Positions 5,154 to 47,999 of a stretch of 48,342 nt of DNA are shown in pieces. The notes beneath the pieces are model-generated. The model did no database searches. It was not told where the DNA came from and was given only the letters and a program-made list of their open reading frames with translations. Position numbers and translations under genes: made by a program. How positions within the stretch are numbered: the stretch's first letter is position 1; every line of letters begins with the position of its first letter. This DNA is from Candidatus Wildermuthbacteria bacterium RIFCSPHIGHO2_01_FULL_49_22b (GTDB taxonomy: Bacteria; Patescibacteriota; Minisyncoccia; Minisyncoccales; UBA10102), in contig MHTT01000008.1 in NCBI GenBank assembly GCA_001823165.1, forward strand, positions 1 to 48,342, written 5' to 3'.

Positions 5154-5969
5154 ATGAGAGAAATTTTAGAAAAAGTAAAAAATGGGGTGCTGGACGCGGT
5201 ATTTCCGGCAACCTGCATGGGTTGCGGTAGAGAAGGAAAGTATATCTGCCAAAGGTGCGAAGGTTTTGTAAGCGAAGTTGCTTTCATCTGCCCAGTATGT
5301 GAACAGTCGAGTTTTGCCGGAGAGCGGCACCAAACCTGCAAATCGTTCTATGGTTTTGATGGTTTGGTAAGCATTTGGGAATACGAGGGGCTCATGAAGA
5401 GTTTACTGCATTATATAAAGTACAATGGCATTACCCATGCTGCCAAAGAAACCACGGAGCGCGCATTTGAGGTGATTGGGCGCGACAGAGAACGATTTGG
5501 CGCATTTTTATCTTTTTTGTTATCTCAAGATACTTTTGTGACGTATGTGCCCATGTTCAAGAAAAAAGAGAGAAAAAGAGGGTTTAACCAGGCGGAGATA
5601 CTTGCAAGAGAGCTTGGAAAAATAGCCGGGAAAGAAACTCTTTGCGCCTTAGAGAAGATACATGATACAAAACCGCAGGTTGAGCTGAAGAAAGAAGAAC
5701 GGCTGGTAATCGTACAAGGCGCCTTTCAGACAACATTGCCCGCCTTTGCCGACCTGCCTGCTGGCAAGGTGGGGGCTTTGGCGGGCAGGCAAATTACAAA
5801 TCCAGACAATCAATTATCAATGGTCAATCATCAATGGTCGGCACCGCAGAAAGTGGTGCTGGTAGATGACGTGTGGACCACAGGAGCTACCATGAAAGAA
5901 TGCTGCAGGGTTTTGAAAAGGGCTGGCGCCAAAGAAATATGGGGGCTTACTATCGCAAGAACCCCCTAA
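5154..5969 (+). CDS. comF: ComF-family protein (phosphoribosyltransferase-like competence protein) carrying a ~30-40 aa extra segment
   Basis: N-terminal CxxC...CxxC zinc finger. RGFNQAE, VQGAF and VVLVDDVWTTGAT PRTase motifs. SD aggaga lies 5 nt upstream of the ATG. Confidence 0.85.
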   Translation: MREILEKVKNGVLDAVFPATCMGCGREGKYICQRCEGFVSEVAFICPVCEQSSFAGERHQTCKSFYGFDGLVSIWEYEGLMKSLLHYIKYNGITHAAKETTERAFEVIGRDRERFGAFLSFLLSQDTFVTYVPMFKKKERKRGFNQAEILARELGKIAGKETLCALEKIHDTKPQVELKKEERLVIVQGAFQTTLPAFADLPAGKVGALAGRQITNPDNQLSMVNHQWSAPQKVVLVDDVWTTGATMKECCRVLKRAGAKEIWGLTIARTP

Positions 5970-6040
5970 ATTTTCAATCAATGACCCAATTTCACAATTT
6001 TTCAATTGAACATTAAAACATTGATAATTCATTGAAAATT
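5967..6040. repeat. AT-rich TIR-bounded miniature element (family E), copy 1. It fills the comF-dprA spacer.
   Basis: Begins taaattttcaat (the TAA is the comF stop) and ends cattgaaaatt. aaattttcaat and attgaaaatt are reverse complements. It shares the blocks cccctaaattttcaat, caatgacc.aattt and tgataatt...cattgaaaatt with 43185-43271. Confidence 0.7.
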
Positions 6041-6046
6041 AGTGTC

Positions 6047-6952
6047 ATGGCTGACAGTATAACTAAAGAAAGTCCTCGATACCCAACACTACTCGGTGAA
6101 CTTAGGGACGCGCCAAAGCAGCTGTATTATAGGGGAAATTGGGACGGGATTTTTTCCGTCGAAGGCGGATCCGCCTCTGGCGGAGAAAAATGCCTGGCGG
6201 TTGTAGGCACGCGGAGAATGACCAGCTATGGAAAGCGCATGACCGAGCAGATCGTGGGTGAGGTTGCTGCGGCCGGGGTGACCGTTGTTTCTGGTTTTAT
6301 GTACGGTATTGATGCTGAAGCCCACAAAGCAGCTTTGAGAGCCGGCGGCAAAACCATTGCCGTAATGCCCTGCGGAATTGACGTTGTGCACCCAGAATAT
6401 CAGGCGGACTTATATCAAGAGATTTTAGATACGGGCGGCTTAGTGGTTTCAGAATACGAAGGCACGCATCCTGCTTTGTATTGGACGTTTCCACGCCGAA
6501 ATCGCATTGTAGCAGGCCTTTCAAAGGCAACGCTGGTAGTGGAGGCCGGTGAAGACAGCGGAGCATTGATTACCGCAGACCTTGCTAAAAAATACGGCAG
6601 AAAACTCTTTGCCGTGCCAAATCCTTTAACGAGCGCGGTTTCGCAAGGAGTAACGCGGTTGCTAAAAGAGGGTGCAACGATTGCAAGCAGCGCAGACGAT
6701 ATTTTGAAGTATTTTGGGTTTCGTACGCGGAGTAGGGTCAGACCCTACTCGCAAGTAGGGTCTGACCCTACTCCGCAGATTGCAGGCGAACTTGAGCAAA
6801 AGATTATGCAGGTGCTTTTCAAGGAATCAATGCAGATTGACGCGCTTGCCAGAAAACTTAAGATACCGGCAGCGCAGCTGGGAGCCGCAATTTCCATGTT
6901 GCAGTTGGAAGGATGCATAACAGAAGAACAGGGCAAATTATATGTTGTTTAA
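6047..6952 (+). CDS. dprA: DNA processing protein DprA
   Basis: LAVVGTRRMTSYGKRMT, VVSGFMYGIDAEAHKAAL, FPRRNRIVAGLS and a C-terminal winged-helix-like tail. The ORF is open from TTG 6032 but ATG 6047 is the more likely start. Confidence 0.9.
   Translation: MADSITKESPRYPTLLGELRDAPKQLYYRGNWDGIFSVEGGSASGGEKCLAVVGTRRMTSYGKRMTEQIVGEVAAAGVTVVSGFMYGIDAEAHKAALRAGGKTIAVMPCGIDVVHPEYQADLYQEILDTGGLVVSEYEGTHPALYWTFPRRNRIVAGLSKATLVVEAGEDSGALITADLAKKYGRKLFAVPNPLTSAVSQGVTRLLKEGATIASSADDILKYFGFRTRSRVRPYSQVGSDPTPQIAGELEQKIMQVLFKESMQIDALARKLKIPAAQLGAAISMLQLEGCITEEQGKLYVV
6727..6776. repeat. Family B palindromic doublet translated in frame within dprA
   Basis: gcggaGTAGGGTCaGACCCTACtcgcaaGTAGGGTCtGACCCTACtccgc. 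It is two 8-bp-arm hairpin units and the whole 50-mer is nearly self-complementary. It encodes [17 protein letters not shown] in the linker between the Rossmann and winged-helix domains. Confidence 0.85.
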
Positions 6953-8845: not shown

Positions 8846-8905
8846 GCGAGACCAAGGATTCCTTGGTCTCGCCTAAGAGCTAAAACTAAGGAGCTCATGG
8901 GAACA
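8762..8905 (+). repeat. 144-bp direct repeat, left copy (yraN 3' end, hairpin, and start codon of the next ORF)
   Basis: Identical to 10847-10990 except one mismatch (8790 t versus 10875 c) by my alignment. Contains the 13-bp-stem hairpin ggcgagaccaagg-att-ccttggtctcgcc (8845-8873). Confidence 0.9.
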
Positions 8906-9418
8906 AACGAGGCCGAAATGTCTGTTTTCCAAAACAGGACTGTTCTTGGAAGTATTGCACGAGGAATACAAAAGATACCGGGGGGAGAAATAGTGGTGCC
9001 GTTCGGACGCACTCCTTCTGCTGTGGCAATGCAAATTATCAACTATTCACCAGTAGGGATTGTAAGGGCCATTGTGCAGAACATTGGCAAGGGCAGGTTT
9101 GACCAAAGAACATTCTCCCAGATGATGGGACGCGGCATTGTTGGTACTGGACCATATTTATTGGAATGGAGCTTTTTGGAAAAGACCTTATTTCTCTTGA
9201 TTGGCCTACCACAGAAAGGGAACGCAAGTGGCGAATTGAAAAGCCCAAAGAAACTTCAAAGAACGCTTACGCCTTCTCCGCTACGTCCATTCTTGAGAGA
9301 AAAAAAGCAGAAGCCTTTTGCGGTTCCTGCCGGAGCTGGGTTTGGGGAGTTTCCTAACTTTCCTGACTTTCCCGAGTTCCCTGATTTCCCAGAGTTCCCT
9401 GAGTTTACGGGATTTTAG
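8897..9418 (+). pseudogene. Chimeric, frameshifted remnant ORF. Its first three codons (MGT) come from the duplicated start of the downstream Wzy/TPR gene.
   Basis: It starts inside the direct repeat with the same catgggaaca as 10982. The reading frame appears to switch near 9150-9170, where the 9166..9357 frame continues with GKDLISLDWPTTERERKW. It ends in a 9-bp tandem repeat. Confidence 0.5.
9346..9408 (+). repeat. 9-bp tandem repeat, about 7 units
   Basis: gagtttcct aactttcct gactttccc gagttccct gatttccca gagttccct gagtttacg, encoding (E/D/N)FP x7. Confidence 0.85.
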
Positions 9419-18700: not shown

Positions 18701-18997
18701 CTGGGAGGGAAAGCGCAGTTTGGAGGACAGCGGTTCGGGGAAATGGAGGTGTGGGCGCTGGAAGGATACGGGGCCTCTCACATCCTCCAGGAAATGCTTA
18801 CCATCAAGTCAGACGATGTTCCGGGAAGGGCAGCCACGTATGAAAGCATCCTGCGGGGACAGCCCATTCAAACCCCCAACCTGCCTGCCTCCTTTTCGCT
18901 TTTACTTGCTGAATTGAGGTCGCTTGGCCTTAACATTGAAGTAAAGGAGACGCAACGGGCGGAAAGAAAACAAGAAGACGAAAGAGAAAAATCCTAA
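15764..18997 (+). CDS. rpoB: DNA-directed RNA polymerase subunit beta
   Basis: Full-length conserved RpoB (FMDNENPLAELEHKRRVSATGPGGL, NMQRQAVPL, GRHGNKGVIS, GGQRFGEMEVWALEGYGA). The ORF is open from TTG 15746 and ATG 15764 is preferred. Confidence 0.97.
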   Translation: MPVPQPSFKNFGKSGVHFPLPYLLQVQQDSWSQFWRGDFKELLQEISPIYDHTKKEFELWFVDFKLGEPNYATDLEAKENDDSFEAPLRVKVRLVNLKTKEQKEQEIFLTDFPLMTERGTFIINGVERVAISQLIRSPGAFFTGQEAKVTRKLFGAKIIPNRGAWLEFETENSGFIGVRIDRKRKAPATTLLKAFGLETEEAIQSAFSDVDKGSVSYIAETLKKDTAKGQGEALMEIYRRLRPGDYVTPDTAKELIGNMFFNFERYDLSRVGRWKTLQRLPALKNPKSKTEEEVSLKDRVLKLEDIIEVLREIIRLNNAPGAVPDQIDHLGNRRVRTFAEFLQNRLRVGFMRMERIVKDRMSTLDASMLTPAQLVNPRPVMAMVKEFFTSSQITQFMDNENPLAELEHKRRVSATGPGGLTRERAGFEVRDVQPSHYGRICPIQTPEGPNIGLVGHMASYARINSYGFLETPYFEVRKEKVTERIKYLNAFEEEQEVIAHAGIPLDAKGAIIPDKVEARVRGEAGMAAKKDVTYIDVGPEQSISVATALIPFLRNDDANRALMGSNMQRQAVPLLRAESPLVGTGLEEKVAKDSGLAVVAQEDGVVKEVDARHITVKPATEKSHTYELKNFVRTNQYTSFHQRPIVDVGQKIKKGQVIADGGAIDQGRLALGTNLLVAFISWRGGNYEDAIILSERLVKDDRYTSIHIEDFVADIRETKLGPELTTSDIPNVGEEKLKDLDEEGVVRAGAEVGPNDILVGKISPKGEADLTSEERLLRAIFGEKARDVKDSSLLMPHGKRGRVVSVKVFERVQGHKLEPGVIKRIHVEVAELRKVQPGDKLAGRHGNKGVISFVLPEEDMPFMEDGTPVDIVLNPLGVASRMNIGQILETHLGWAAKKQGYFALTPGLAGANEKDIKAELKAAGLPEDGKVTLFDGRDGTSFPQKITVGMIYMMKLIHMVEDKIHMRSIGPYSLITQQPLGGKAQFGGQRFGEMEVWALEGYGASHILQEMLTIKSDDVPGRAATYESILRGQPIQTPNLPASFSLLLAELRSLGLNIEVKETQRAERKQEDEREKS

Positions 18998-19085
18998 GAA
19001 ATCCTAAATCCGATTTAGAGAAATCCTAGATTTAGTAAGAAATCCTAAATCCGATTTAGTAAGAAATCCTAAATCCGATTTAGAA
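18988..19085 (+). repeat. Tandem array of family C REP-like palindromes in the rpoB-rpoC spacer
   Basis: cctaaatccgatttag at 19003-19018, 19044-19059 and 19068-19083, with a degenerate copy at 19024-19035, at ~24-nt period (aagaaatcctaaatccgatttagt). All are in the CCG orientation. The rpoB TAA stop (18995-18997) lies in a partial unit aaatcctaag. Confidence 0.85.
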
Positions 19086-19125
19086 ATTTTAGAAATTAGA
19101 ATTTAGAGTTTTAGTTTTAGCATAC

Positions 19126-22100
19126 ATGAGGGTAACCGATTTAGAATCCATTCGAATAAAGCTCGCCTCCCCGGACAACGTTTTGGCGTGGTCTCACGGG
19201 GAGGTTACGAAGCCCGAAACCATCAACTACCGCACCCAGCGCGCGGAAAAGGAAGGTTTGTTTGACGAGCGCATCTTTGGTCCGGAAAAGGACTATGAGT
19301 GCTATTGCGGCAAGTACCGCAAGATACGCTACAAGGGCGTGGTGTGCGACCGGTGCCAAGTGGAGGTGACCAAATCCTCGGTGCGCCGCGAGCGCATGGG
19401 CCACATCAAGCTGGCCTCGCCCTGCTCGCACATCTGGTTTCTGCGGGGGGTGCCCTCGCGCATGGGCCTTGTTTTGGATATTCCTTCTGGCGCCTTGGAG
19501 CGCGTCATCTACTTTGCCTCGTATATCATCACCAAGGTGAACGAGGAGGCAAAAGCCAAGGCCGCAGACGAGATTGAGGCGGAATTCAAGCAGAAATTCA
19601 AGAACAAGGGAGAAGAAGAAAAGCAGCAGCTCAAGGGAGCGCGCGACCGGGCCAGAGAAGAGCTCAAGCTCCTCCAGCCCTTGAAAATCCTTTCTGAAGC
19701 AGAGTATCAGAACCTTTCTTTAAAGTACGGCCAGGCCTTTGAGGCGGGAACCGGAGCTGGAACCCTAAGAAAAATATTTCAAGAAGTGGATTTAAAGAAG
19801 CTTCTCAATCAGGTAAAAAAAGACCTGGAAAAGGCGAGTTTGGTGACGAAACGAAAACTCTTGGTCAGGATGCGACTGCTGCAGGGAATGCTGGAGTCCT
19901 CTATTCGCCCCGAATGGATGTTTTTCACCCACTTGCCTGTTCTTCCTCCCGACCTGCGTCCCATGGTGCAGCTGGACGGGGGAAGGTACGCTTCCTCTGA
20001 CTTAAACGACCTGTACCGCAGGGTGATTAACCGCAACAACCGCTTAAAGTATCTGCTGGAAATTGAGGCCCCGGACGTGATTGTGCGCAACGAGAAGCGC
20101 ATGCTGCAGGAAGCCGTGGACGCCCTGATTGACAACTCTATGAGAAAAGGACAACTCACGTCAGCTACCACGGGAGGAAGGCGCCTGTTAAAGTCCCTAG
20201 CGGACATGCTCAAGGGAAAGCAGGGACGGTTCCGCCAGAACCTGCTGGGAAAGCGTGTGGACTACTCGGGGAGGTCGGTCATTGTGGTGGGTCCCACCAT
20301 GAGTTTGAAGAACGTGGGACTGCCAAAGCGCATGGCCCTGGAGCTGTTTAAGCCCTTTGTGATTCAAAAAATCCTTGAACGGGAGTTTGCCTTCAATGTC
20401 CGGGGAGCAAATCGGCTTATTGAACAGGAAACCAACGATGTATGGGCGATTTTGGAAGAGGTTGTCGCAGAAAGAATGGTGCTCTTGAACCGCGCGCCGA
20501 CTCTTCACCGCTTGGGCATCCAGGCCTTTTACCCGCAGCTCGTGGAAGGGGAGGCCATCCGCCTGCATCCTCTGGTGTGCTCCGCCTTCAACGCGGACTT
20601 TGACGGAGACCAGATGGCCGTCCATGTGCCTCTGTCCAAAGAGGCCCAGGAAGAGGCCAGAAACCTGATGCTGTCGGCAAACAATCTGTTAAAGCCCGCC
20701 ACGGGAATCCCGGTGGCCGGTCCCCGCCAGGATATGGTGCTCGGCTGCTATTACTTGACCGGCGCAGACAAAAAACCGCAGGAACAAAAGAAGAGTTTTT
20801 CGTCTCCGCAGGAGGTCCTGCTTGCCATGGAAGCCGGGGCTGTCGGGTTGCGGGACGCCATACGGGTGCGTATGCCAAAGACCTGGGGAGGGGACGGTAT
20901 TTCTCTTGCGGAAACCACGCCAGGCCGCCTCATTTTCAACGAGTCCTTGCCTTCCGGGTTCCCGTTTGTCAACGAACAGATTACCGCAAAAAGAATGGAA
21001 CGCCTGGTGGCGGATATTATTAAGCATTATCCTGCCGAGGAGGCCCCCGGCATGTTAGACAAAATCAAGGAGCTGGGATTTGAATATGCGACCAAGTCCG
21101 GAATCACTTGGGGCATGGATGATCTGACGGTCCCGGAAGAAAAGAAAGAGCTGCTGGGGCAAGCTGCGCAAGAGATTGAAGTCATTGATTCCCATTTTGC
21201 AAGGGGATTGCTTTCCAAGGAGGAGAGGTCGGCTAAGGTCATTGAAATCTGGCAGCGGGTGAAGTCCGCGGTGGAAAAACTCGTGCCGAAATCCCTGCCT
21301 GAAGGCGGTTCGGTCTTTTCCATTATTGACTCCGGGGCAAGGGGTTCTTGGTCCCAGCCCGTGCAGATGGCGGGCATGAAGGGCTTGGTGATTAACCCGG
21401 CAGGCCGCATTATTGAGCTGCCCGTCAAGAGTTCTTTCAAGGAAGGGTTTGACGTACTGGAGTACTTCATTTCCACGCACGGGGCAAGAAAGGGAACCGC
21501 GGACACCGCCTTGAGAACGTCCACGGCAGGGTATCTTACCCGCCGTTTGATTGACGTTGCCCATGACGTGCTGGTAACCTTGCATGACTGCAAAGACACG
21601 GCGGGCATCGTCATTACCAAGGCCGTGGCCCAAGAGCTGGGCCAGAACATTGCTTTAAAGCTTGCTGGCAGGATTTCCCTGCAGGACCTGAAAGGAATTG
21701 TGAAGAAAGGAGGGTACATTGATTGGGACAAGGCCCAGGCAATTGGAGAAGACGAGAAGGTAAAGGAGGTGTGGGTACGCTCGCCTTTGTCGTGCCGCGC
21801 GGTGCGGGGAGTGTGCCAGCTGTGCTACGGATGGGATATGGGCAGGAACAGGGAGATTGAGCTGGGAGCGGCTGTTGGCATCGTGGCGGCCCAATCCATT
21901 GGAGAGCCGGGAACGCAGCTTACCATGAGAACATTCCACACGGGAGGGGTTGCTGGAGGAGGCGACATTACCCAGGGACTTCCCCGCGTAGAGGAAATCT
22001 TTGAAGGAAGGGTTCCGAGCGGCAAGGCCGTCTTATCAGAGCTTGCAGGGAAAGTGGTTGAGATAACTCCAGAGGGCGCGGTGAAGATACAAGCAACAAT

Positions 22101-22716
22101 TGACAATTTACAATTGACAATTGACAAGAAGAATAGTCGTCAAAAGTCAAAAGTCAAGAGTCAAGAGTCAATCGTGGAATACCAGATTCCCGCAAAGCGG
22201 GCTTTGTGGGTAAAGCTTGGAGACCAGGTCGTGAAAGGGCAGCAACTGTGCGAAGGGCACCCGGACCTTCAAGAGATATTTTCCCTCACCGGAAAGGACG
22301 GCGCGGCGTCTTATATCGTCAGAGAAGTGCAAAGTATTTACACTTCCCAGGGCGCTTCCATCCACGACAAGCATATTGAGACCATAGCGCGCCAGATGTT
22401 TTCCCGCATCAGAATCAAGGATGCGGGAGACGCCGCCTTCACGGAAGGGGAAGTGGTAGAAAGGGCCGTATTTCTGGAAGAAAACGCCAAGGTCAAGAAG
22501 CTTTCAAAGAGAGGAGCCGTGGGCTCCCAGCTTCTCTTGGGCATTTCCAAAATTGCCCTCACCACGGACAGCTTTCTGTCCTCGGCCTCGTTCCAGGAAA
22601 CCTCCCGCGTTTTGATTAAGGCCTCTCTGGAAGGCAAGGAAGACCGCCTGCGGGGTCTGAAAGAAAACGTGATTATCGGGAAGCTTATTCCTGCGGGAAC
22701 CGGGTTCAAGAAATAA
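19126..22716 (+). CDS. rpoC: DNA-directed RNA polymerase subunit beta-prime
   Basis: Zn-finger CYCGKYRKIRYKGVVCDRCQVEV, catalytic NADFDGDQMAVHVPLS, trigger-loop region GEPGTQLTMRTFHTGG and C-terminal ASFQETSRVL. Confidence 0.97.
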   Translation: MRVTDLESIRIKLASPDNVLAWSHGEVTKPETINYRTQRAEKEGLFDERIFGPEKDYECYCGKYRKIRYKGVVCDRCQVEVTKSSVRRERMGHIKLASPCSHIWFLRGVPSRMGLVLDIPSGALERVIYFASYIITKVNEEAKAKAADEIEAEFKQKFKNKGEEEKQQLKGARDRAREELKLLQPLKILSEAEYQNLSLKYGQAFEAGTGAGTLRKIFQEVDLKKLLNQVKKDLEKASLVTKRKLLVRMRLLQGMLESSIRPEWMFFTHLPVLPPDLRPMVQLDGGRYASSDLNDLYRRVINRNNRLKYLLEIEAPDVIVRNEKRMLQEAVDALIDNSMRKGQLTSATTGGRRLLKSLADMLKGKQGRFRQNLLGKRVDYSGRSVIVVGPTMSLKNVGLPKRMALELFKPFVIQKILEREFAFNVRGANRLIEQETNDVWAILEEVVAERMVLLNRAPTLHRLGIQAFYPQLVEGEAIRLHPLVCSAFNADFDGDQMAVHVPLSKEAQEEARNLMLSANNLLKPATGIPVAGPRQDMVLGCYYLTGADKKPQEQKKSFSSPQEVLLAMEAGAVGLRDAIRVRMPKTWGGDGISLAETTPGRLIFNESLPSGFPFVNEQITAKRMERLVADIIKHYPAEEAPGMLDKIKELGFEYATKSGITWGMDDLTVPEEKKELLGQAAQEIEVIDSHFARGLLSKEERSAKVIEIWQRVKSAVEKLVPKSLPEGGSVFSIIDSGARGSWSQPVQMAGMKGLVINPAGRIIELPVKSSFKEGFDVLEYFISTHGARKGTADTALRTSTAGYLTRRLIDVAHDVLVTLHDCKDTAGIVITKAVAQELGQNIALKLAGRISLQDLKGIVKKGGYIDWDKAQAIGEDEKVKEVWVRSPLSCRAVRGVCQLCYGWDMGRNREIELGAAVGIVAAQSIGEPGTQLTMRTFHTGGVAGGGDITQGLPRVEEIFEGRVPSGKAVLSELAGKVVEITPEGAVKIQATIDNLQLTIDKKNSRQKSKVKSQESIVEYQIPAKRALWVKLGDQVVKGQQLCEGHPDLQEIFSLTGKDGAASYIVREVQSIYTSQGASIHDKHIETIARQMFSRIRIKDAGDAAFTEGEVVERAVFLEENAKVKKLSKRGAVGSQLLLGISKIALTTDSFLSSASFQETSRVLIKASLEGKEDRLRGLKENVIIGKLIPAGTGFKK
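22097..22172 (+). repeat. Family A heptamer-array hairpin element translated within rpoC
   Basis: caa TTGACAA TTTACAA TTGACAA TTGACAA gaagaat agtcgtc AAAAGTC AAAAGTC AAGAGTC AAGAGTC aat, encoding TIDNLQLTIDKKNSRQKSKVKSQES. Homologous to 36963-37036 and to the reverse complement of 34589-34662. Confidence 0.85.
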
Positions 22717-26169: not shown

Positions 26170-26292
26170 AGATTTTACTGCGTAAAAGAAATTACAAATT
26201 CAAAGCACCAAATTCCAAACGCTTTTGGTTTGTGATTTGTGGTTTTGGTCATTGTAATTTGTTTGTAGTTTGGAATTTGTAATTTGTGATTT
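26170..26292 (-). repeat. Family F intercistronic element (ssb-rpsR spacer)
   Basis: The reverse complement is colinear with the groES-groEL spacer. It has a CA-rich tract (aaatcacaaa...), then gcgtttggaatttggtgct(t/g)tgaatttgtaatttcttttacg(c/a)agtaaaa directly before the ATG. Inverted termini are aaattacaaattc.../...tttggaatttgtaattt. Confidence 0.8.
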
Positions 26293-27182
<890 letters not shown>

Positions 27183-34040: not shown

Positions 34041-34382
34041 TTAGATCTTGCCTTTGCTAAACAGGGAAAGCACGATAAGCACTGCTGCGACCGCAAACCC
34101 CGTCAGCGCAAGAGACGTGAGGTTGGGAATGGTGAGCTCGGGAAAGAATATGTCCAGCGCCCATACGGCGGAAAAAACCAGGGCCAAGAGAACCGCGAGC
34201 TTCACAATCAAGGAAAAAAGATTCAGTAAGGGGCGCGCCACAGCCAGAATGATACCAAGAATGAGCCCCGCAATCAAGAAGTTTTTCAGCTCCCCCGTAA
34301 AATCCACTCCCGGCACGAACTCTGTTGCAATCCAAAGGCCGGCCAATCCCGCGAGCAGAGAGAGAACAATGGTATGAAGCAT
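34041..34382 (-). CDS. Four-TM membrane protein, DUF360/phage-holin-4-like family
   Basis: 113 aa and entirely hydrophobic helices. Its start overlaps the uvrC stop (TAATG), implying translational coupling. Confidence 0.6.
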   Translation of the reverse strand: MLHTIVLSLLAGLAGLWIATEFVPGVDFTGELKNFLIAGLILGIILAVARPLLNLFSLIVKLAVLLALVFSAVWALDIFFPELTIPNLTSLALTGFAVAAVLIVLSLFSKGKI

Positions 34383-35788
34383 TAAGATAGCGTACCCCGC
34401 TTTTGAGATTTGGTCAATCCGAGGACTTGTTCCCTGAGCTTTCGATGGTAAGAAATGGCAAAGCGGTGCGCTTCGTCCCTGATATGGAGAAACAGATTCT
34501 CAAGGGGCCTCGGCAGGTCTCTCAAAAGCACTGGTCTTGATTTGCCGGGAAAGAACAGCTCGTTTTGTTTTTTTGCCAGTGCCACCATGATTGACTTTTG
34601 ACCTTTGACTTTTGACGATTGACTTTTTTTGCTGTCAATTGTCAATTGTGAATTGCCAATTGTTAGCTCCCGCAGCGCAGAGAGCGCTGCGGTGAGCTGC
34701 CCCTTTCCTCCGTCAATGACCATGAGCTGGGGATAGGGCCATTCGGGGTGCCGGAGACGCCTTGAGAGAAGTTCTTCCATCATAGCATAATCATTTGATT
34801 TACCAGATATGCGAATCTTGTACTTTCTATAGGATTCCTTGAGAGGGGCCCCTTTAAGAAAGGTAACCTGGGAACCTGTTGCTTGTTTCCCTTGGATGTT
34901 GGAGATGTCATAGGCCTCCATGCGGGAGATTCGTTTTCTTGTTTCAAAGAGCTTCTGGAGTTCCTTTTCTATGAGGTTCCAGTTGGTGGAGGGCGCGGTC
35001 TCGCGGGAAAGGAGCCGCGCATGAGAAACAATGCGCTCTAAAGCGAGAAATTGATCTCTCAATCCTGCTGCTTTTTCAAAACCCTGATTCTTTGCGGCCT
35101 CGTTCATTTCTTTTTTCAGTTGTCTGAAAACCGAGGTTCTCTTTCCTTTGAGGACGGCGGCAAGTTTGCGCAGGTTCTTTTTGTATGTTTTCTCATCTGG
35201 GTCGGGTCCCGGGCAGAGATTGAGCTGGCACCAGGAGCAGGGAAGGGAGCCGTGCTTTTTTGCCGTGTAATAGGGGAATACCCTCCGAAGCAATCTCAAT
35301 ACCCGCCTGATTGCCTTTCCTTCCGTGAAAGGGCCAATATAGTTTGTATCTTGTATTTTGTATCTTGTATTTTGTATTTTTTTCTCCTTTTTCATACCAG
35401 ATACCAGATACGAGCTACAAGATACAAGGCGGGGCTGATGCGTCAAAAAGATTCTCGGAAGTTTATCTTTTGTTATTCCAACAAAAAAATACCCCTTGTC
35501 GTCTTTCCACATGACGTTGTATTTGGGCTGCAGCTTCTTTATGAGCTGCGACTCCAGCAACAAGGCATCAATTTCAGATTGAGTTTCAAGATATCCTACC
35601 CTGGTTACTTGGGATGTGAAAAGATTGTCCCGGTAGCTGGGCTGGGCAAAGTGGATTCTGACCCGGTCTTTGATATTCCCCGCCTTTCCTATATACAGCA
35701 CCGCTTTGGGAGAAGCCAAAGCATACACCCCGGGTGCTTTTGGAAGGGTTGAGAGTTTTGATTTGGGAACATACCGAAACTTTTCCAT
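34382..35788 (-). CDS. uvrC: Excinuclease ABC subunit C, short form (no C-terminal HhH2 domain), carrying two in-frame repeat insertions
   Basis: GIY-YIG (GVYALASPKAVLYIGKAGNIKDRV), UVR domain (EMNEAAKNQGFEKAAGLRDQFLALERI) and endonuclease V-like domain ending IRDEAHRFAISYHRKLR. ATG 35788 fits the canonical N-terminus, but the frame stays open to TTG 36091. Confidence 0.9.
   Translation of the reverse strand: MEKFRYVPKSKLSTLPKAPGVYALASPKAVLYIGKAGNIKDRVRIHFAQPSYRDNLFTSQVTRVGYLETQSEIDALLLESQLIKKLQPKYNVMWKDDKGYFFVGITKDKLPRIFLTHQPRLVSCSSYLVSGMKKEKKIQNTRYKIQDTNYIGPFTEGKAIRRVLRLLRRVFPYYTAKKHGSLPCSWCQLNLCPGPDPDEKTYKKNLRKLAAVLKGKRTSVFRQLKKEMNEAAKNQGFEKAAGLRDQFLALERIVSHARLLSRETAPSTNWNLIEKELQKLFETRKRISRMEAYDISNIQGKQATGSQVTFLKGAPLKESYRKYKIRISGKSNDYAMMEELLSRRLRHPEWPYPQLMVIDGGKGQLTAALSALRELTIGNSQLTIDSKKSQSSKVKGQKSIMVALAKKQNELFFPGKSRPVLLRDLPRPLENLFLHIRDEAHRFAISYHRKLREQVLGLTKSQKRGTLS
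34589..34662 (-). repeat. Family A heptamer-array hairpin element translated within uvrC
   Basis: The coding strand reads caa TTGGCAA TTCACAA TTGACAA TTGACAG caaaaaa agtcaat cGTCAAA aGTCAAA gGTCAAA aGTCAAT cat, encoding TIGNSQLTIDSKKSQSSKVKGQKS. Confidence 0.85.
35344..35428. repeat. Family G heptamer-array hairpin element translated within uvrC
   Basis: The plus strand reads TTGTATC TTGTATT TTGTATC TTGTATT TTGTATT tttttctcctttttc ATACCAG ATACCAG ATACGAG CTACAAG ATACAAG. ttgtat and atacaa are reverse complements. It encodes the extra segment ...LVSCSSYLVSGMKKEKKIQNTRYKIQDTNY.... Confidence 0.8.
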
Positions 35789-36091
35789 GAGTATAGTATA
35801 TCTGCTTTGCGGAGTTGCGTCTAAAAAAAAGTGTCCTGAAGCGCTTGGCTCAGGACACAGGAACAGCAGGACACAGAAACAAGGATGGTATGGCCCTAGT
35901 TTATTATGATTGGCAGAGCAGATGCTCCTTGCTGCCGTAAGGCCAAGGAAGCATCCGGCAAGGCCCAGAACCAGGGTTGAGACAACGATGGAGGTCTGGC
36001 TGGGTCCTTGGGGAAGAAGGGATACCAGGATGCCAATTCCTGCACCCAGCAACCCTCCGATTATGATAATGATGCCGAATATCTTATCCAA
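35789..36091 (-). CDS. SD-led two-TM ORF segment in frame with uvrC. It is either a separate small membrane protein whose stop is missing or frameshifted, or an N-terminal membrane anchor of UvrC.
   Basis: TTG start at 36091 preceded by gaAGGAGGaatc (SD 5 nt upstream). Translation is MDKIFGIIIIIGGLLGAGIGILVSLLPQGPSQTSIVVSTLVLGLAGCFLGLTAARS, then low-quality Cys-rich sequence across the terminator hairpin. TAA TAA and TAG occur in the other two frames right after TM2. Confidence 0.35.
35823..35858 (-). terminator. Rho-independent terminator-like hairpin on the minus strand, between the upstream 2-TM ORF segment and the uvrC ATG
   Basis: The minus strand reads GTGTCCTGA-gccaagcgct-TCAGGACAC followed by TTTTTTTT. 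Confidence 0.55.
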
Positions 36092-36229: not shown

Positions 36230-39157
36230 ATGGCACAGGATTTCATTAAAATCAGGGGAGCACGGGTTCACAACCTCAAGAACATTGACGTTGATATCCC
36301 CAAGGGCAAGCTTGTGGTGATTACCGGGCTTTCCGGGTCAGGGAAAAGCTCTCTTGCCTTTGATACTCTGTATGCTGAAGGACAGAGAAGGTACGTTGAG
36401 AGTTTGTCCGCATACGCGCGGCAATTCCTGGGCGTCATGCAAAAGCCCGATGTGGATTCCATTGAGGGCATTAGTCCTGCCATTGCCATTGACCAGAGAA
36501 AGGGAGCTCACAACCCTCGTTCTACCGTTGGGACCATTACGGAGATATATGACTATCTCCGTCTTTTGTTTGCAAGGATAGGAGTTCCGCACTGTCCCAA
36601 CTGCGGCAGGGAAGTCAAGCGCCAGTCGGTTTCCTCCATTGCAGACCAGGTGCAGAAACTTCCCGCCAAAGACGAGATTGCCATTCTTGGTCCTGTAATC
36701 AGGGAGAAAAAAGGGGAGCACCGGGGAGTTTTAGAAGAAATCCAGCGTTCCGGGTTTGTGAGGGCTCGCATTGACGGCATTGTGGAGCGCGTTGAAGAGG
36801 CCCTGGAAAAGGAGTTGGACCGCAAAAAGAAGCATTCCATTGAAGTGCTCGTGGACCGGCTAACCATAGACAAGGATCTGGACCGCCCCCGCCTCATCGA
36901 TTCTTTAGAGACCGCCTTAAAGCTTGGGAAAGGGCTGGTGATTGTGCGGGCACAGTCACCAACAATTGACAATTCACAATTAACAATTAGCAAGAAGAAT
37001 CGTCGTCAAAAGTCAACAGTCAATAGTCAAAAGTCAGGAGAAGACCTGGTCTTCAGCGAGCGCTTTGCCTGCGAGCAATGCAGTATTTCCCTGCCAGAGA
37101 TTGAGCCGAGAATGTTTTCTTTCAACTCTCCCTTTGGGGCGTGTCCTGCGTGCCAGGGATTAGGAGAAAAGCTGGAGGTTGATCCCAAACTGGTGATTCC
37201 CAACCCCCGGCTTTCCCTTGCCGAGGGCGCCATTTTCCCCTGGGCGCACGCTTCCCATAAGATAGGACGCCAGGGATTCTTTTGGTGGAAACTGGAAGAC
37301 CTGGCGAAAGAAAGGAAGTTTTCTTTGAATACTCCAGTAGAGGAGCTTTCTCCTAAAGTCATTAGCCTGGTCTTGCAAGGAGATAGAGGGTTTGCCGCCC
37401 GCAGAAGCGGGCGAGCCTCACCCGCCTCTGAAGAGGCGAGGTGGGAAGGAGTGATTCCCTGGCTGGAACGAAGATACCATGAGACCGACTCTGAATACGC
37501 CAGGGAAGAGATTGAGCAGTATATGATAGAGCGCTTGTGCGAAATGTGCCAGGGAAAGAGGTTGAAACCCGAGGTGGTGGCGGTAACCGTGGGGGCAAAG
37601 TCCATTCACGGGGTCGTAAACCTGCAGCTCAACCGCGTCAAAGAGTTTTTTGGCAAACTCTTCTTGAAAGAGCATGAGAAAAAGATAGCAAGCCCCATTG
37701 TAAAAGAGATTGTGAATCGCCTTCAGTTTTTAATTGATGTGGGCTTGGAGTATCTCACCCTGGCGAGAAAAGCCGCGACCCTGTCAGGAGGAGAAGAACA
37801 GAGAATACGGCTCGCCACCCAGATTGGCTCAAAGCTTACTGGGGTCTTGTACATATTGGACGAGCCCTCTGTCGGTTTGCATGCCAGAGACCAGCATCGC
37901 CTCATTGCGACCTTGCAGCAATTGCGCTCTTTGGGCAATACCATTGTAGTAGTAGAGCATGACCCCCAAACCATACGGTCAGCTGACTGGGTGGTGGATA
38001 TTGGCCCTGGAGCAGGAAAGCACGGGGGCCGTGTCACTTTTACCGGAACGCCAAAACAGCTGCTCAAGTCGCGCACACTTACCGGAGATTACCTAGCGGG
38101 GCGCAGAACTGTTCAGATAAGCAAAGTAGGGTCAGACCCTACTCGGGTGAGTAGGGTCAGACCCTACTCACAGCTGATTGTCCAGGGGGCAACGCACAAC
38201 AACTTAAAGAACATTGACGTTGCAATACCGCTGGAAAGGATGGTGTGCGTGACCGGGGTTTCAGGGTCTGGCAAAAGTTCTCTGGTCAGCGATATTGTGG
38301 CAAAAGCCCTGCTGCAGAAGTTCTACAGGGCAAAGGAAGAACCGGGAGAGCATAAGGCAATTTTAGGCACGGAGCATCTTAACAAGGTGGCGCTGGTGGA
38401 CCAGTCGCCCATTGGCAGAACTCCGCGTTCCAACCCCGCAACCTACACAGGGTCCTTTTCTGTCATACGGGATTTGTTTGCTTTATGCAAAGAGGCCAGG
38501 GTGCGGGGCTACAAGCCGGGAAGATTTTCTTTTAATGTAAAGGGAGGAAGATGCGAGTCCTGCGAGGGCCAGGGGCTAAAAAAGATTGAGATGTACTTTT
38601 TACCGGACGTGTATGTGGAGTGCGAGGAATGCCAGGGACAGCGATACATGAAAGAGGTCCTGGAGGTGGAATACCGAGGCAAAAACATTGCCCAGGTTCT
38701 GGCAATGACCGTGGAGGAAGCCCTGGCGTTTTTCAGAAACATTCCCGCCCTGACAGCGAAGTTGAAGACCTTAAACGACGTGGGACTCTCGTATGTGGAG
38801 CTGGGACAGCCCGCCCCCTCCCTTTCTGGGGGAGAGGCCCAGCGAGTAAAGCTGGCAACCGAGCTTGCAAAGAAAGCAACAGGAAAGACCCTGTACATTC
38901 TAGACGAGCCAACCACGGGTCTTCATTTTGACGACGTGAAAAAACTGCTTCAGGTGTTGGGGGAACTGACGGACAAGGGAAACACGGTATTGATTATTGA
39001 GCACAATCTTGATGTGGTGCGCAATTCGGACTGGATTATTGACCTGGGACCAGAGGGAGGAGAAAAAGGGGGGAAATTGGTCGCAGAGGGAACCCCAAGA
39101 GATGTTGCCAAAATAAAAAAGAGCTATACGGGGCAGTACTTGCGTAAGTTCAGCTGA
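36230..39157 (+). CDS. uvrA: Excinuclease ABC subunit A, carrying two in-frame repeat insertions
   Basis: Two ABC modules ([51 protein letters not shown]), zinc modules (CPNCG, CEQC...[12 protein letters not shown]...CEECQGQRY), 975 aa. Confidence 0.97.
36963..37036 (+). repeat. Family A heptamer-array hairpin element translated within uvrA
   Basis: caa TTGACAA TTCACAA TTAACAA TTAGCAA gaagaat cgtcgtc AAAAGTC AACAGTC AATAGTC AAAAGTC a, encoding [25 protein letters not shown]. Confidence 0.85.
38125..38168. repeat. Family B palindromic doublet translated within uvrA
   Basis: aGTAGGGTCaGACCCTACtcgggtgaGTAGGGTCaGACCCTACt, encoding [17 protein letters not shown]. These are the same two peptide readings as in dprA but in swapped order. 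Confidence 0.85.
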
Positions 39158-39816: not shown

Positions 39817-41586
<1,770 letters not shown>

Positions 41587-42281: not shown

Positions 42282-43187
42282 GTGAATATCTACTCGCACG
42301 CTGAAGCAAACACAAGAAAAACATGGTTGTACCTTCTGGGGTTTTTTGTCTTTGTGGTTGCGATTGGCTGGTTCATGAGTTATGCCTTAGGCAGTCAGGT
42401 CATCTTGTGGATTGCGGTTGGTTTGAGCATTGTCATGAGCTTTGGTTCTTTTTGGTATTCAGACAAACTGGTGCTGTCTTTATCGCATGCAAAACCCATT
42501 GAGAAGAAAGATGCCCCCGAATTGTACCGTATGGTGGAGAATTTGAGCATCACGGCAGGACTGCCAACGCCGCGAGTATTCATTATCCAGGACGCGCAGC
42601 CCAACGCTTTTGCAACAGGCAGGGACGCAAAGCACGCCGTGGTGGCAGTAACCACGGGTTTGTTCAGTCGTTTGGAGCGCACCGAGCTGGAAGGAGTGCT
42701 TTCCCACGAACTCTCCCACATTGGCAACAAGGATATGCTGGTTTCCACGGTTGTGGTGGTTTTGGTTGGCGTGGTGGTTTTGCTTGCAGATCTTTTCTTT
42801 CGCCTTGCCTATTTTGGAGGCATGGGAGGGCGAAGCGATAGAGGAGGAGGGCAGGCAAGGATCGCGCTCATTCTGATTGCGCTCGCCTTCCTTATCCTGG
42901 CCCCCATGCTGGCCCAGGCAATGAAGTTTGCCATTTCCCGGAAACGCGAGTTTCTGGCCGACGCTTCCGGAGCCCTTCTCACAAGGTATCCTGAAGGCCT
43001 GGCCTTGGCCCTAGAAAAGATTTCAAGCGACCCGCACCAGTTAAAATCCGCCAACGACGCCACCTCCCATCTATATATTGCAAATCCGTTTAGGGGCAAA
43101 GAGCAGAAGAGCTGGATTCACAAACTATTCATGTCGCATCCGCCGGTAGAGGAGCGCGTCAAGGCATTGCGCGGTATGCGCCCCTAA
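42282..43187 (+). CDS. htpX: M48-family zinc metalloprotease HtpX
   Basis: GTG start, HELSHI zinc motif, four TM helices, EFLADASGALLT, SHPPVEERV. Confidence 0.93.
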   Translation: MNIYSHAEANTRKTWLYLLGFFVFVVAIGWFMSYALGSQVILWIAVGLSIVMSFGSFWYSDKLVLSLSHAKPIEKKDAPELYRMVENLSITAGLPTPRVFIIQDAQPNAFATGRDAKHAVVAVTTGLFSRLERTELEGVLSHELSHIGNKDMLVSTVVVVLVGVVVLLADLFFRLAYFGGMGGRSDRGGGQARIALILIALAFLILAPMLAQAMKFAISRKREFLADASGALLTRYPEGLALALEKISSDPHQLKSANDATSHLYIANPFRGKEQKSWIHKLFMSHPPVEERVKALRGMRP

Positions 43188-43271
43188 ATTTTCAATTATC
43201 AATTTCCAATTTTTAATCAAACCCCAATGACCAAATTTTTAAACAGTCTGATAATTGAAGCATTGAAAATT
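43185..43271. repeat. AT-rich TIR-bounded miniature element (family E), copy 2
   Basis: It starts at the htpX TAA (cccctaaattttcaat...) and ends ...cattgaaaatt. It shares blocks with 5967-6040. Confidence 0.7.
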
Positions 43272-43303
43272 CACTGAAGATTGAGAATTGCAAATTGAGA
43301 ATT

Positions 43304-47714: not shown

Positions 47715-47999
47715 TCCGCGGTAGCTCAGCTGGTAGAGCGGCTCGCTGTGAGTAAAGTTGCAGCTTCTTGGAGCAATCCAGGTTGAAAAACGGGGTTAAT
47801 TGCGGGAAACCTAAAGCGAAAGCCAAGGCAATCCGCAGCCAAGGGATGTAACATTTTGCCTTGCAAAATTGTACGTTCAAGGTTCAGAGACTATACGCCC
47901 CGCACCCCTTTGGGGTGATGAGATAGTCCACGCCAGTATGAAAGTATTGGGTTGCGTGTAACGAGATGGTCGTAGGTTCGAATCCTACCCGCGGAGCCA
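47715..47999 (+). tRNA. tRNA-Asn(GUU) interrupted in the anticodon loop by a group I intron. Exons are 47715-47749 and 47959-47999 (CCA encoded).
   Basis: The spliced product is UCCGCGG UA GCUC AGCUGGUA GAGC G GCUCG CUGU|UAA CGAGA UGGUC GUAGG UUCGAAU CCUAC CCGCGGA G CCA. U1-A72, G73 and overall similarity to bacterial tRNA-Asn support the call. One 27-43 mismatch. Confidence 0.85.
47750..47958 (+). ncRNA. Group I self-splicing intron (209 nt, tRNA-intron/IC3-like, no ORF)
   Basis: The canonical core elements are all present: P aattgcgggaaa (~47798), Q aatccgcagc (47830-47839), R gttcagagacta (47882-47893) and S agatagtcc (47921-47929). P1 pairs exon gcugU (47745-47749) with IGS Gcagc (47760-47764), giving a U-G wobble at the 5' splice site. 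The intron ends in G (47958). Confidence 0.88.

Follow-up and report, generated by a model that had tools for sequence, protein, structure and literature searches.

What are two opposed arrays of heptamers doing inside a DNA-repair gene? The question is raised by uvrC of Candidatus Wildermuthbacteria, a member of the Candidate Phyla Radiation (CPR, or Patescibacteria) from the Rifle aquifer, whose 569-aa UvrC product (OHA65988.1) is encoded on a 48-kb contig, hereafter the window; all coordinates are positions in it. Within this gene, five 7-nt units, a spacer and five units of the complementary word follow one another, an arrangement called family G here. Family G is best explained as a copy of a short repeat element with two opposed five-unit arrays, which the ribosome reads through. 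By the same explanation, heptamer-array elements fill the intergenic spacers and a few permissive surface loops of housekeeping proteins (those encoded by uvrC, uvrA and rpoC) in Wildermuthbacteria-like CPR genomes, and the element is selfish or structural DNA that adds about 23 passenger residues and serves no dedicated function in UvrC. Real and out of the ordinary as the finding is, a precedent exists for each of its ingredients.

Anatomy of family G and its insertion site in UvrC

The original prediction placed two opposed heptamer arrays and their spacer at positions 35344-35428, inside uvrC. Tandem Repeats Finder (TRF), an inverted-repeat search and folding all recover them, at 35343-35428 (Table 1). 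The spacer is made of T and C, as had been said, and is 16 nt long instead of the 15 nt announced, a trivial difference. Read in the sense of uvrC, the layout is five NNN-GTAT units, an A-rich spacer and five ATAC-NAN units. TRF finds periods of 7 (5.4 and 4.6 copies) and 14 (100% matches), and the inverted-repeat search two arms of 34 nt each, 82% complementary, with 16 nt between them. These arms can pair into a long imperfect hairpin: the sense RNA folds with -26.8 kcal/mol (z = -5.8, equalled by none of 200 shuffles), and the DNA fold has a z of -5.2. Family G thus combines the three to four or more head-to-tail copies of a heptanucleotide tandem repeat with the layout of an inverted heptamer array pair, in which one heptamer occurs on opposite strands in adjacent arrays. 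The period itself is singular in the window. There are 15 windows of 28 nt with at least 24 matches at lag 7 and none at the other lags from 4 to 12; lag-7 periodic segments number 13, compared with 0.05 in shuffled sequences and at most 2 at other lags. An assembly artefact is ruled out, since family G is unchanged in four other independent assemblies of the same population (five in all), and the k of 141 exceeds the array length.

The element lies in the open reading frame (ORF) 34382-36091 of the minus strand, where it is translated, in an open frame free of stops, as LVSCSSYLVSGMKKEKKIQNTRYKIQDTNY. Pfam matches to GIY-YIG (aa 21-92) and UVR (aa 223-253) stand on either side of it, so that the prediction of an extra translated segment between these two domains is borne out. 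The true start of uvrC is probably the MEKFRY at 35788, to judge from the sequence: MEKF is the start of most UvrC homologs, and the annotated 569-aa protein begins 101 codons upstream (35789-36091) with a hydrophobic two-helix segment. Because a terminator-like hairpin with a T-run (35831-35858, minus strand) separates this N-terminal extension from MEKFRY, the extension is probably a separate small ORF or an over-call.

Family G inserts about 23 residues into a linker that follows GIY-YIG, is hypervariable in length and is predicted to be disordered. Among 100 UvrC homologs, the stretch from THQ to YIGPF measures 5 to 60 aa, with a median of 19 (7 aa in L010, 10 aa in L011); about 29 of the 100 have a short linker without a hairpin, and several others carry single-arm arrays. 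In an AlphaFold2 model built from a 43-sequence alignment, residues 122-144 (family G) and 381-395 (a family-A copy, see below) are coil with a predicted local distance difference test (pLDDT) score below 50, each flanked by confidently modelled elements. Solved GIY-YIG domains stop short of the family-G site. On its downstream side, the 3' array adjoins the conserved Tyr codon of YIGPF, and takes it in for some orthologs. The whole is therefore a palindromic, in-frame, stop-free insertion at a tolerant surface site of a conserved protein, as are the palindromic elements of Rickettsia discussed below.

Conservation of the heptamer pattern across UvrC lineages

Family G is not peculiar to this genome. 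The full element occurs at exactly this site in at least 7 of the 100 UvrC homologs, all from diverged lineages (the window, P0025, P0111, P0092, P0116, P0118 and P0068), with conservation at the nucleotide level, and half-versions are present in seven further homologs. In the six carriers whose DNA was compared, there are always 5 + 5 units, a 13-19-nt A-rich spacer, the same boundaries and the same frame. The prediction would have been weakened by orthologs that carry the peptide without any periodicity in their DNA; none does so, every ortholog with the family-G peptide also showing the DNA periodicity.

Between the window and L001, uvrC is 61% identical in nucleotides (40% at third positions), and the element 92% (90% at third positions); no other 29-codon window of the gene rises above 76%. 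Over the six orthologs, conservation at the successive positions of the heptamer is.87.80.63 1.0.93 1.0.93 in the 5' arm and 1.0 1.0 1.0.97.87.97.67 in the 3' arm. The cores GTAT and ATAC.A are 93-100% conserved at whatever codon position they fall. Conservation is flat over codon positions: core bases at third positions are 94-100% conserved, compared with 71-83% for variable slots at first or second positions, and third positions invariant in all six genomes make up 62% of the element's codons vs 6% in the remainder of uvrC. Conservation tracks the 7-nt period and not the codon; what is kept is a nucleic-acid pattern, not a peptide.

These figures bear directly on the idea that the insert is an adaptation of the protein, a flexible and positively charged Lys/Asn/Gln/Thr-rich heptad peptide that would aid DNA binding by UvrC (and by UvrA and the beta prime subunit). 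The host proteins in the window all bind DNA, the peptides are basic (KKEKKIQNTRYK; SKKNRRQKS), and the insert has been kept in at least seven lineages. Such a role is nevertheless very improbable: conservation does not depend on codon position and is highest at synonymous core sites, amino-acid identity between the window and L001 elements (0.79) is lower than nucleotide identity (0.92), the segment is predicted disordered, many homologs do without it, and the same type of element is found in a membrane glycosyltransferase and in intergenic DNA.

The strongest rival is a host cis-acting element, in which an mRNA hairpin or DNA cruciform would tune uvrC expression, for instance through translation pausing at the GIY-YIG boundary or through mRNA processing or stability, the peptide being a by-product. 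The 7-periodic conservation persists in lineages where synonymous sites are saturated, and the identity of boundaries and of the 5 + 5 count in six lineages looks like purifying selection. All six copies fold (z from -4.5 to -8.6), and 74.8% of cells are paired in the proposed register, compared with 22-50% in slid registers. Moreover, nearly every long linker at this site contains hairpin-forming sequence, in the others of some other family. The helix shows no covariation, however: 20 of 35 pairs never vary, a single one is compensatory, and observed values do not exceed those of shuffles. With invariant pairs and no covariation, the structure is inseparable from the repeated motif. In Rfam, family G has only sub-threshold, chance matches (23 bits, against a gathering score of 90), so that neither of the two marks of a structured RNA family, a covariance-model match or helix covariation, is present. 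The hairpin-free linkers and single-arm arrays of other homologs also speak against a host function, as do the family-A copy in uvrA, which no longer folds, and the presence of the same kind of element in unrelated genes and intergenic spacers. On balance we consider a cis-element unlikely, albeit a serious contender.

The motif could also be read as duplex DNA. The reader might be a dimeric protein, perhaps of the ribbon-helix-helix type to which omega/ParB of plasmid pSM19035 belongs, that recognises a core of 4-5 bp every 7 bp in direct and inverted orientation, and the arrays would then be kept for binding in nucleoid organisation, partition or repression. The parS of pSM19035 consists of contiguous heptads in mixed orientation that are bound by omega/ParB, at least four contiguous heptads being needed (PMC9499535). 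Family G has that architecture, with a core of 4-5 nt and 2-3 free positions per unit, at least four contiguous 7-bp units and both orientations. Single-arm arrays, for which a hairpin model has no need, persist at the same sites, and L003 carries heptads of AATCACA type. Even so, the idea seems quite improbable. A search within the window yielded no candidate binding protein; the many words present in one 48-kb window would call for numerous proteins or for one that reads very loosely; near-equal unit numbers and adjacent arms are what pairing would lead one to expect. The known heptad operators are carried on plasmids, sit upstream of promoters and are bound by an identified cognate protein (PMC9499535), whereas the present arrays are chromosomal, intragenic and of many words.

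On a neighbour-joining tree of UvrC (linker masked; a rough tree, which carries no support values), G carriers appear in at least five separate places, and other types of linker insert are equally patchy. Among carriers, element identity (0.70-0.89) does not follow gene identity. The sister genes L286 and L288 are 0.82 identical and their elements just 0.74. L288 resembles L286 along the gene except in the element window, where it is only 0.69 identical to L286 but 0.92 to the distant L285. A recombination tract was considered as the cause of this discordance and ruled out, as the flanks revert immediately. The sequences suggest an affinity between the L285 and L288 elements, and no more than suggest it, because the variable slots are few and near saturation. 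It is solid that either the variable slots change faster than synonymous sites or the element is overwritten. As far as these sequence comparisons tell, the history of the element is decoupled from that of its host gene.

Sister copies, change by whole units and the origin of the arrays

The prediction further held that a second family in the window, family A, has the same design, and took the two together as a sign of a shared generating or mobilising process. Family A consists of 4.5 ACAATTG-type units, a spacer and five GTCAAAA-type units. It has three copies in unrelated genes of the window (rpoC, uvrC and uvrA; Table 1), and family G one. The layout is the same in both families; a strict hairpin is not, family-A arms being only about 71% complementary and the uvrA copy having no fold. 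The three copies are near-identical; their alignment runs from AACAATTG to GTCAATCRTGG, ends sharply and gives way to unrelated flanks. They have unit order, unit variants and the spacer GCAAGAAGAATMGTCGTCAAAAGTCAA in common. The alignment gap of T. maritima UvrC falls exactly at the family-A site. In each copy, the host frame is the only open one of six, and the unit that would yield an in-frame TGA is altered in all three, from which it follows that the copies are translated under selection. Their shared frame and orientation were at one point entertained as a sign of targeted insertion, an idea that was dropped: with one open frame in six, selection alone suffices.

Change in the arrays comes in whole 7-nt units. 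Among four strain contigs that are near-identical (12-20 substitutions over 15-22 kb each), the single indel is a 28-nt deletion of four units in the 3' arm of the uvrC family-A copy, the sole indel in 21.6 kb of contig L278 beside 18 substitutions relative to the window. It shifts the frame of uvrC and leaves a truncated 513-aa product (P0128). Length polymorphism by whole units between close strains is thus seen in family A and not in family G, which is invariant in its five assemblies.

Such a variant is what a contingency (phase-variation) switch would produce. As 7 cannot be divided by three, units added or removed would toggle uvrC or uvrA and create a subpopulation that is reversibly mutator or deficient in repair; according to PMC2651432, simple repeats, heptanucleotide ones included, serve as switches in other bacteria. 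That the arrays are maintained for this purpose would be most surprising, considering that family G has no frameshifting variant among five strain assemblies, that six orthologs all have 5 + 5 units, that the same family that varies also sits in the essential rpoC, where switching off is lethal, and that a single event was observed.

Another possibility is purely local expansion, in which slippage in place would enlarge a native 7-nt seed, the complementary arm would arise by fold-back or template switching, and nothing would move between loci. Heptanucleotide repeats are described as the commonest long simple repeats in many prokaryotes, with a 7-nt polymerase footprint and polymerase slippage proposed in explanation (Mrazek 2007, as cited in PMC4679880 and PMC4692102). 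Lag-7 arrays in unrelated phyla, the 28-nt strain deletion, the contact of the 3' array with the Tyr codon of YIGPF and the occurrence of different words at the same site in different lineages all agree with it. It leaves unexplained why family-A copies in three genes are alike in unit order, variants, spacer and sharp ends, why one 5 + 5 element recurs with 75-92% identity in distant lineages, why one word is found in both uvrA and uvrC of a single genome, and why the history of the element conflicts with that of its host. We regard expansion in place alone as a poor candidate.

The reading that we prefer, and which we hold with about as much confidence as doubt, is that of a self-maintaining, hairpin-forming heptad-array repeat, at home in permissive loops and in intergenic spacers, which yields a passenger peptide when translated, slips in 7-nt steps and is copied or overwritten between loci. 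It starts from five results that we count as demonstrated, namely the insertion in a hypervariable loop, the 7-periodic nucleotide conservation, the change of arrays by entire 7-nt units, the near-identical sister copies in different genes and the decoupling from host-gene history. Arrays would arise and resize through replication slippage in a 7-nt register. Pairing-dependent copying, by template switching between the inverted-repeat arms or by gene conversion, might then keep the arms and the ten units alike; template switching between inverted-repeat arms homogenises and expands them in other systems (PMC7202029, PMC8604942, PMC13100816). Copies would be spread or overwritten between loci by some copy mechanism, and selection would spare only those that are open in the host frame and lie in tolerant loops. 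As regards a shared process behind the two families, the near-identical, sharp-ended family-A copies in three genes, the G-like copies in a PMT gene and in an intergenic spacer, and the 28-nt slippage deletion are consistent with a generating or mobilising one. For mobilisation in particular, the window yielded no enzyme, and the ends of the copies no target-site duplication or target motif.

Several points weigh against a self-maintaining repeat. No transposase, RAYT-like (REP-associated tyrosine transposase) or other mobilising gene is present among the window ORFs. At their ends, neither the three family-A copies nor the G copies show a target-site duplication or a shared target motif. Family G has its single copy in 48 kb, and over 321 kb of CPR loci its word is nearly confined to L092 and the sites in uvrC and uvrA. 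Six orthologs with the same boundaries and the same 5 + 5 count fit one old, selected insertion better than repeated insertion, and the invariance of core positions, both within arrays and between lineages, is a signature of purifying selection that a purely selfish or neutral model does not explain. Arm-to-arm copying should erase mismatches, yet the variable slots remain mismatched. Finally, the evidence for slippage is one event, and in family A, not G. A bolder proposal can be derived from the same data: opposed heptad arrays might form a distinct class under nucleotide-level selection in core genes (uvrC, uvrA, rpoC) across the CPR, either a site-specific, homing-like or conversion-driven mobile hairpin that time and again overwrites the same codons of a loop, or a dual-coding cis-element (mRNA hairpin or protein-bound heptad operator) within the reading frame of DNA-repair genes. 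We regard it as possible but doubtful.

Table 1. Heptamer-array features of the window and the strain deletion
Feature	Coordinates	Strand	Description
Family G element	35343-35428	-	In frame in uvrC; 5 x 7 nt, 16-nt spacer, 5 x 7 nt of the complementary word
Family G array, + strand	35343-35377	+	TTTGTAT CTTGTAT TTTGTAT CTTGTAT TTTGTAT
Family G spacer, + strand	35378-35393	+	16 nt, T/C; TTTTTTCTCCTTTTTC
Family G array, + strand	35394-35428	+	ATACCAG ATACCAG ATACGAG CTACAAG ATACAAG
Family G 5' arm (uvrC sense)	35394-35428	-	CTTGTAT CTTGTAG CTCGTAT CTGGTAT CTGGTAT; 5 units; conserved core GTAT (core from six orthologs)
Family G spacer/hairpin loop (uvrC sense)	35378-35393	-	GAAAAAGGAGAAAAAA; 16 nt; encodes KKEKK
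Family G 3' arm (uvrC sense)	35343-35377	-	ATACAAA ATACAAG ATACAAA ATACAAG ATACAAA; 5 units; core ATAC.A (from six orthologs); 14-nt super-period
uvrC coding sequence from likely start MEKFRY	34382-35788	-	GIY-YIG, UVR and RNase H-like endonuclease domains; hosts family G and one family-A copy
Family A copy in rpoC (beta prime)	22094-22176	+	Lies in a stretch that exceeds its Thermus beta prime counterpart by about 20 aa
Family A copy in uvrC	34587-34665	-	Site is a short turn in T. maritima UvrC; AlphaFold2 pLDDT <50, residues 381-395
Family A copy in uvrA	36958-37041	+	Loop of 3-10 aa in most orthologs; fold lost
28-nt deletion (four heptamers)	34600-34627		Strain contig L278 (10001-11542; ERZ27254767 k141_1481066)
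Intergenic AAATCCT / GATTTAG array complex	18983-19111		Between rpoB and rpoC; stops in all six frames
Intergenic arrays, TTTGTAA/TTTGTGA/TTTGGAA words	26205-26294		One base from the family G word; weak fold, z = -1.5
Intergenic paired arrays, ACAAAYC-type / TTTGGAA-type	39839-39930		Downstream of uvrA; fold z = -3.6
Intergenic paired arrays, AATTTTC-type / GAGAATT-type	43184-43303		After M48 peptidase gene; fold z = -3.9; stops in all six frames

Related arrays, precedents and significance

Had family G been the only lag-7 array pair, a common process would have lost its footing. The window contains the three family-A copies and four intergenic pairs as well (Table 1). Lag-7 arrays reach a density of 27 per 100 kb here, compared with 8 in other CPR loci and 4 in outgroup loci. 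One and the same UvrA loop holds family A in the window, an ATCACAA array in L003 and the family-G word in L165. The UvrC linker is just as diverse: L284 has paired GAAACGT/GTTTCAC arrays, L282 a single ATACYAA array whose word is also found in its uvrA, and L003, L006 and L013 unrelated palindromes. L092 carries two G-like hairpins, one in frame in a PMT-family glycosyltransferase, the other filling the 68-nt spacer from a dehydrogenase stop codon to an epimerase start codon. Paired heptamer arrays also occur in Elusimicrobiota, Thermodesulfobacteriota and other groups. In two Elusimicrobiota contigs (L015, 6489-6563; L017, 6100-6192) they lie in the N-terminal signal-peptide region of what is seemingly the same ORF, with the words GGAAGTG/TTTTACC and AAGTGGT/TTTACTA, respectively: the same site, a different word, another phylum.

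Heptamer arrays are not the only inserts of UvrC. Among homologs P0002-P0120 there are about 20 other sporadic insertion sites, with recurrent peptides (PSTTLRAG, LPKGAGARAKLGRGRGY, CRARPKGSHM, HSTNSGQA, IPTAPPELR, PKLSLG) that are translations of other, often GC-rich palindromic repeats (L003 7244-7300, L006 10349-10456, L013 10355-10450), patchy on the tree. Because these palindromic insert types recur patchily over the UvrC tree, colonisation of reading frames by hairpin repeats seems to be general in the clade.

Metagenome and viral contigs were scanned with the pattern ATACRAR x3 + ATAC, which is poorly specific, many viral matches being giant-virus bins. Among the metagenome matches listed, 15 of 126 arrays have a complementary array within 150 nt, compared with 0 of 163 control flanks. 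A partner accompanies 1 of 81 arrays on viral contigs, and that scan gave no sign of a phage origin. In metagenome contigs of GC-rich genomes (L162, L069, L102 and L149), a central GC-rich intergenic hairpin lies between A/T-rich ATACGAR arrays and their complements, as in L162 (ATACGAGATACGAGATACGAAATAC gagaggggcctcggg...cccgaggcccctctc GTATTTCGTATCTCGTATCTC), an arrangement which suggests that arrays extend pre-existing hairpins. At the protein level, an exhaustive HMMER search with the real 33-aa family-G peptide found it in no other host protein, and a synthetic 46-aa idealised probe matched no protein. The former search returned 13 small ORFs only (P0134-P0146), public "hypothetical proteins" made of RYKIQDT, GYRIQDT or RFKIQDS repeats; they result from nothing more than the translation of long pure (ATACAAG)n-type arrays, and are probably spurious gene calls.

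Elsewhere in the window, a single-arm array, ATCAATT ATCAATG GTCAATC ATCAATG (5808-5836), is seen with no partner array inside an ORF for a ComF-like protein (5154-5969; double zinc ribbon and phosphoribosyltransferase), which is encoded near DprA (6032-6952). From these two genes, the organism probably takes up and recombines DNA, which bears on the exchange of repeat variants between lineages. A period-9/18 tandem repeat, GAGTTCCCT x6.6 (9347-9406), occupies an ORF that has no Pfam match (8897-9418); this nonamer is in frame and has no relation to the heptamer families. Near the window end (47740-47950, plus strand), there is a full-length match to a group I intron (Rfam RF00028, 92.5 bits), and ARAGORN finds no tRNA there.

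A literature search found no published description of such elements in CPR genomes. The closest structural parallel is in Xanthomonas, where GGGAATC arrays form convergent inverted pairs, 70-75 in each genome (Rehm et al. 2015, PMC4692102). There too, two tandem 7-nt arrays lie close together on opposite strands, with stem-loop or cruciform potential, and are dispersed. The Xanthomonas pairs draw on a single G-rich word in each genome, which forms quadruplexes; most of them lie between genes, with under-representation on the coding strand (PMC4692102). The present elements, in contrast, use many A/T-rich words per genome (TTGTATC/ATACAAG for family G, inside uvrC), are in frame in core genes and have orthologous copies conserved across diverged lineages. 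Other heptanucleotide simple sequence repeats, among them the cyanobacterial short tandemly repeated repetitive (STRR) sequences (Mazel 1990; Mrazek 2007, as cited in PMC4692102 and PMC4679880) and the TAACTGA repeats of Beggiatoaceae (PMC4679880), resemble ours in their head-to-tail 7-nt units, the dominance of period 7, the slippage proposed for them and their patchy distribution. They differ in being single direct arrays, overwhelmingly intergenic, and the accounts given in these sources describe no complementary pairing, no in-frame position in conserved proteins and no core-plus-variable units.

In lifestyle, the closest parallel is offered by the Rickettsia palindromic elements (RPEs), which are palindromic repeats set in frame within genes of Rickettsia (Ogata et al. 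2000, 2002, as reviewed in PMC10969869). As described in that review, they form short palindromic families in frame in unrelated housekeeping genes, are translated and fold-compatible, and have had no transposase assigned to them. They measure about 100-150 bp with a family consensus, are not made of 7-nt tandem units and belong to an unrelated lineage, the alpha-proteobacteria, so that similarity in sequence is not to be expected. By analogy, the heptad-array element may be read as RPE-like in lifestyle and heptanucleotide-simple-repeat-like in construction. Repetitive extragenic palindromic (REP) sequences and the REPIN hairpins, and hairpins of MITE type (for miniature inverted-repeat transposable element), are likewise short, hairpin-forming, multi-copy, non-coding and reliant on enzymes encoded elsewhere (PMC3116915, PMC10969869). 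The present elements are distinguished from them by the lack of terminal inverted repeats with target-site duplication, the lack of RAYT or transposase genes in the window, their tandem-unit build and their survival inside ORFs.

If the reading of a self-maintaining repeat is true, hairpin-forming heptamer repeats are tolerated, and perhaps even conserved, in the most conserved genes of genome-reduced CPR bacteria. In practice, such inserts inflate and fragment protein families, give rise to spurious small ORFs of the RYKIQDT type and can frameshift repair genes in natural populations. The 7-periodic conservation, which overrides codon structure, is a clean and testable nucleic-acid constraint inside an ORF, and offers a route into the long-unexplained excess of heptanucleotides in prokaryotes.

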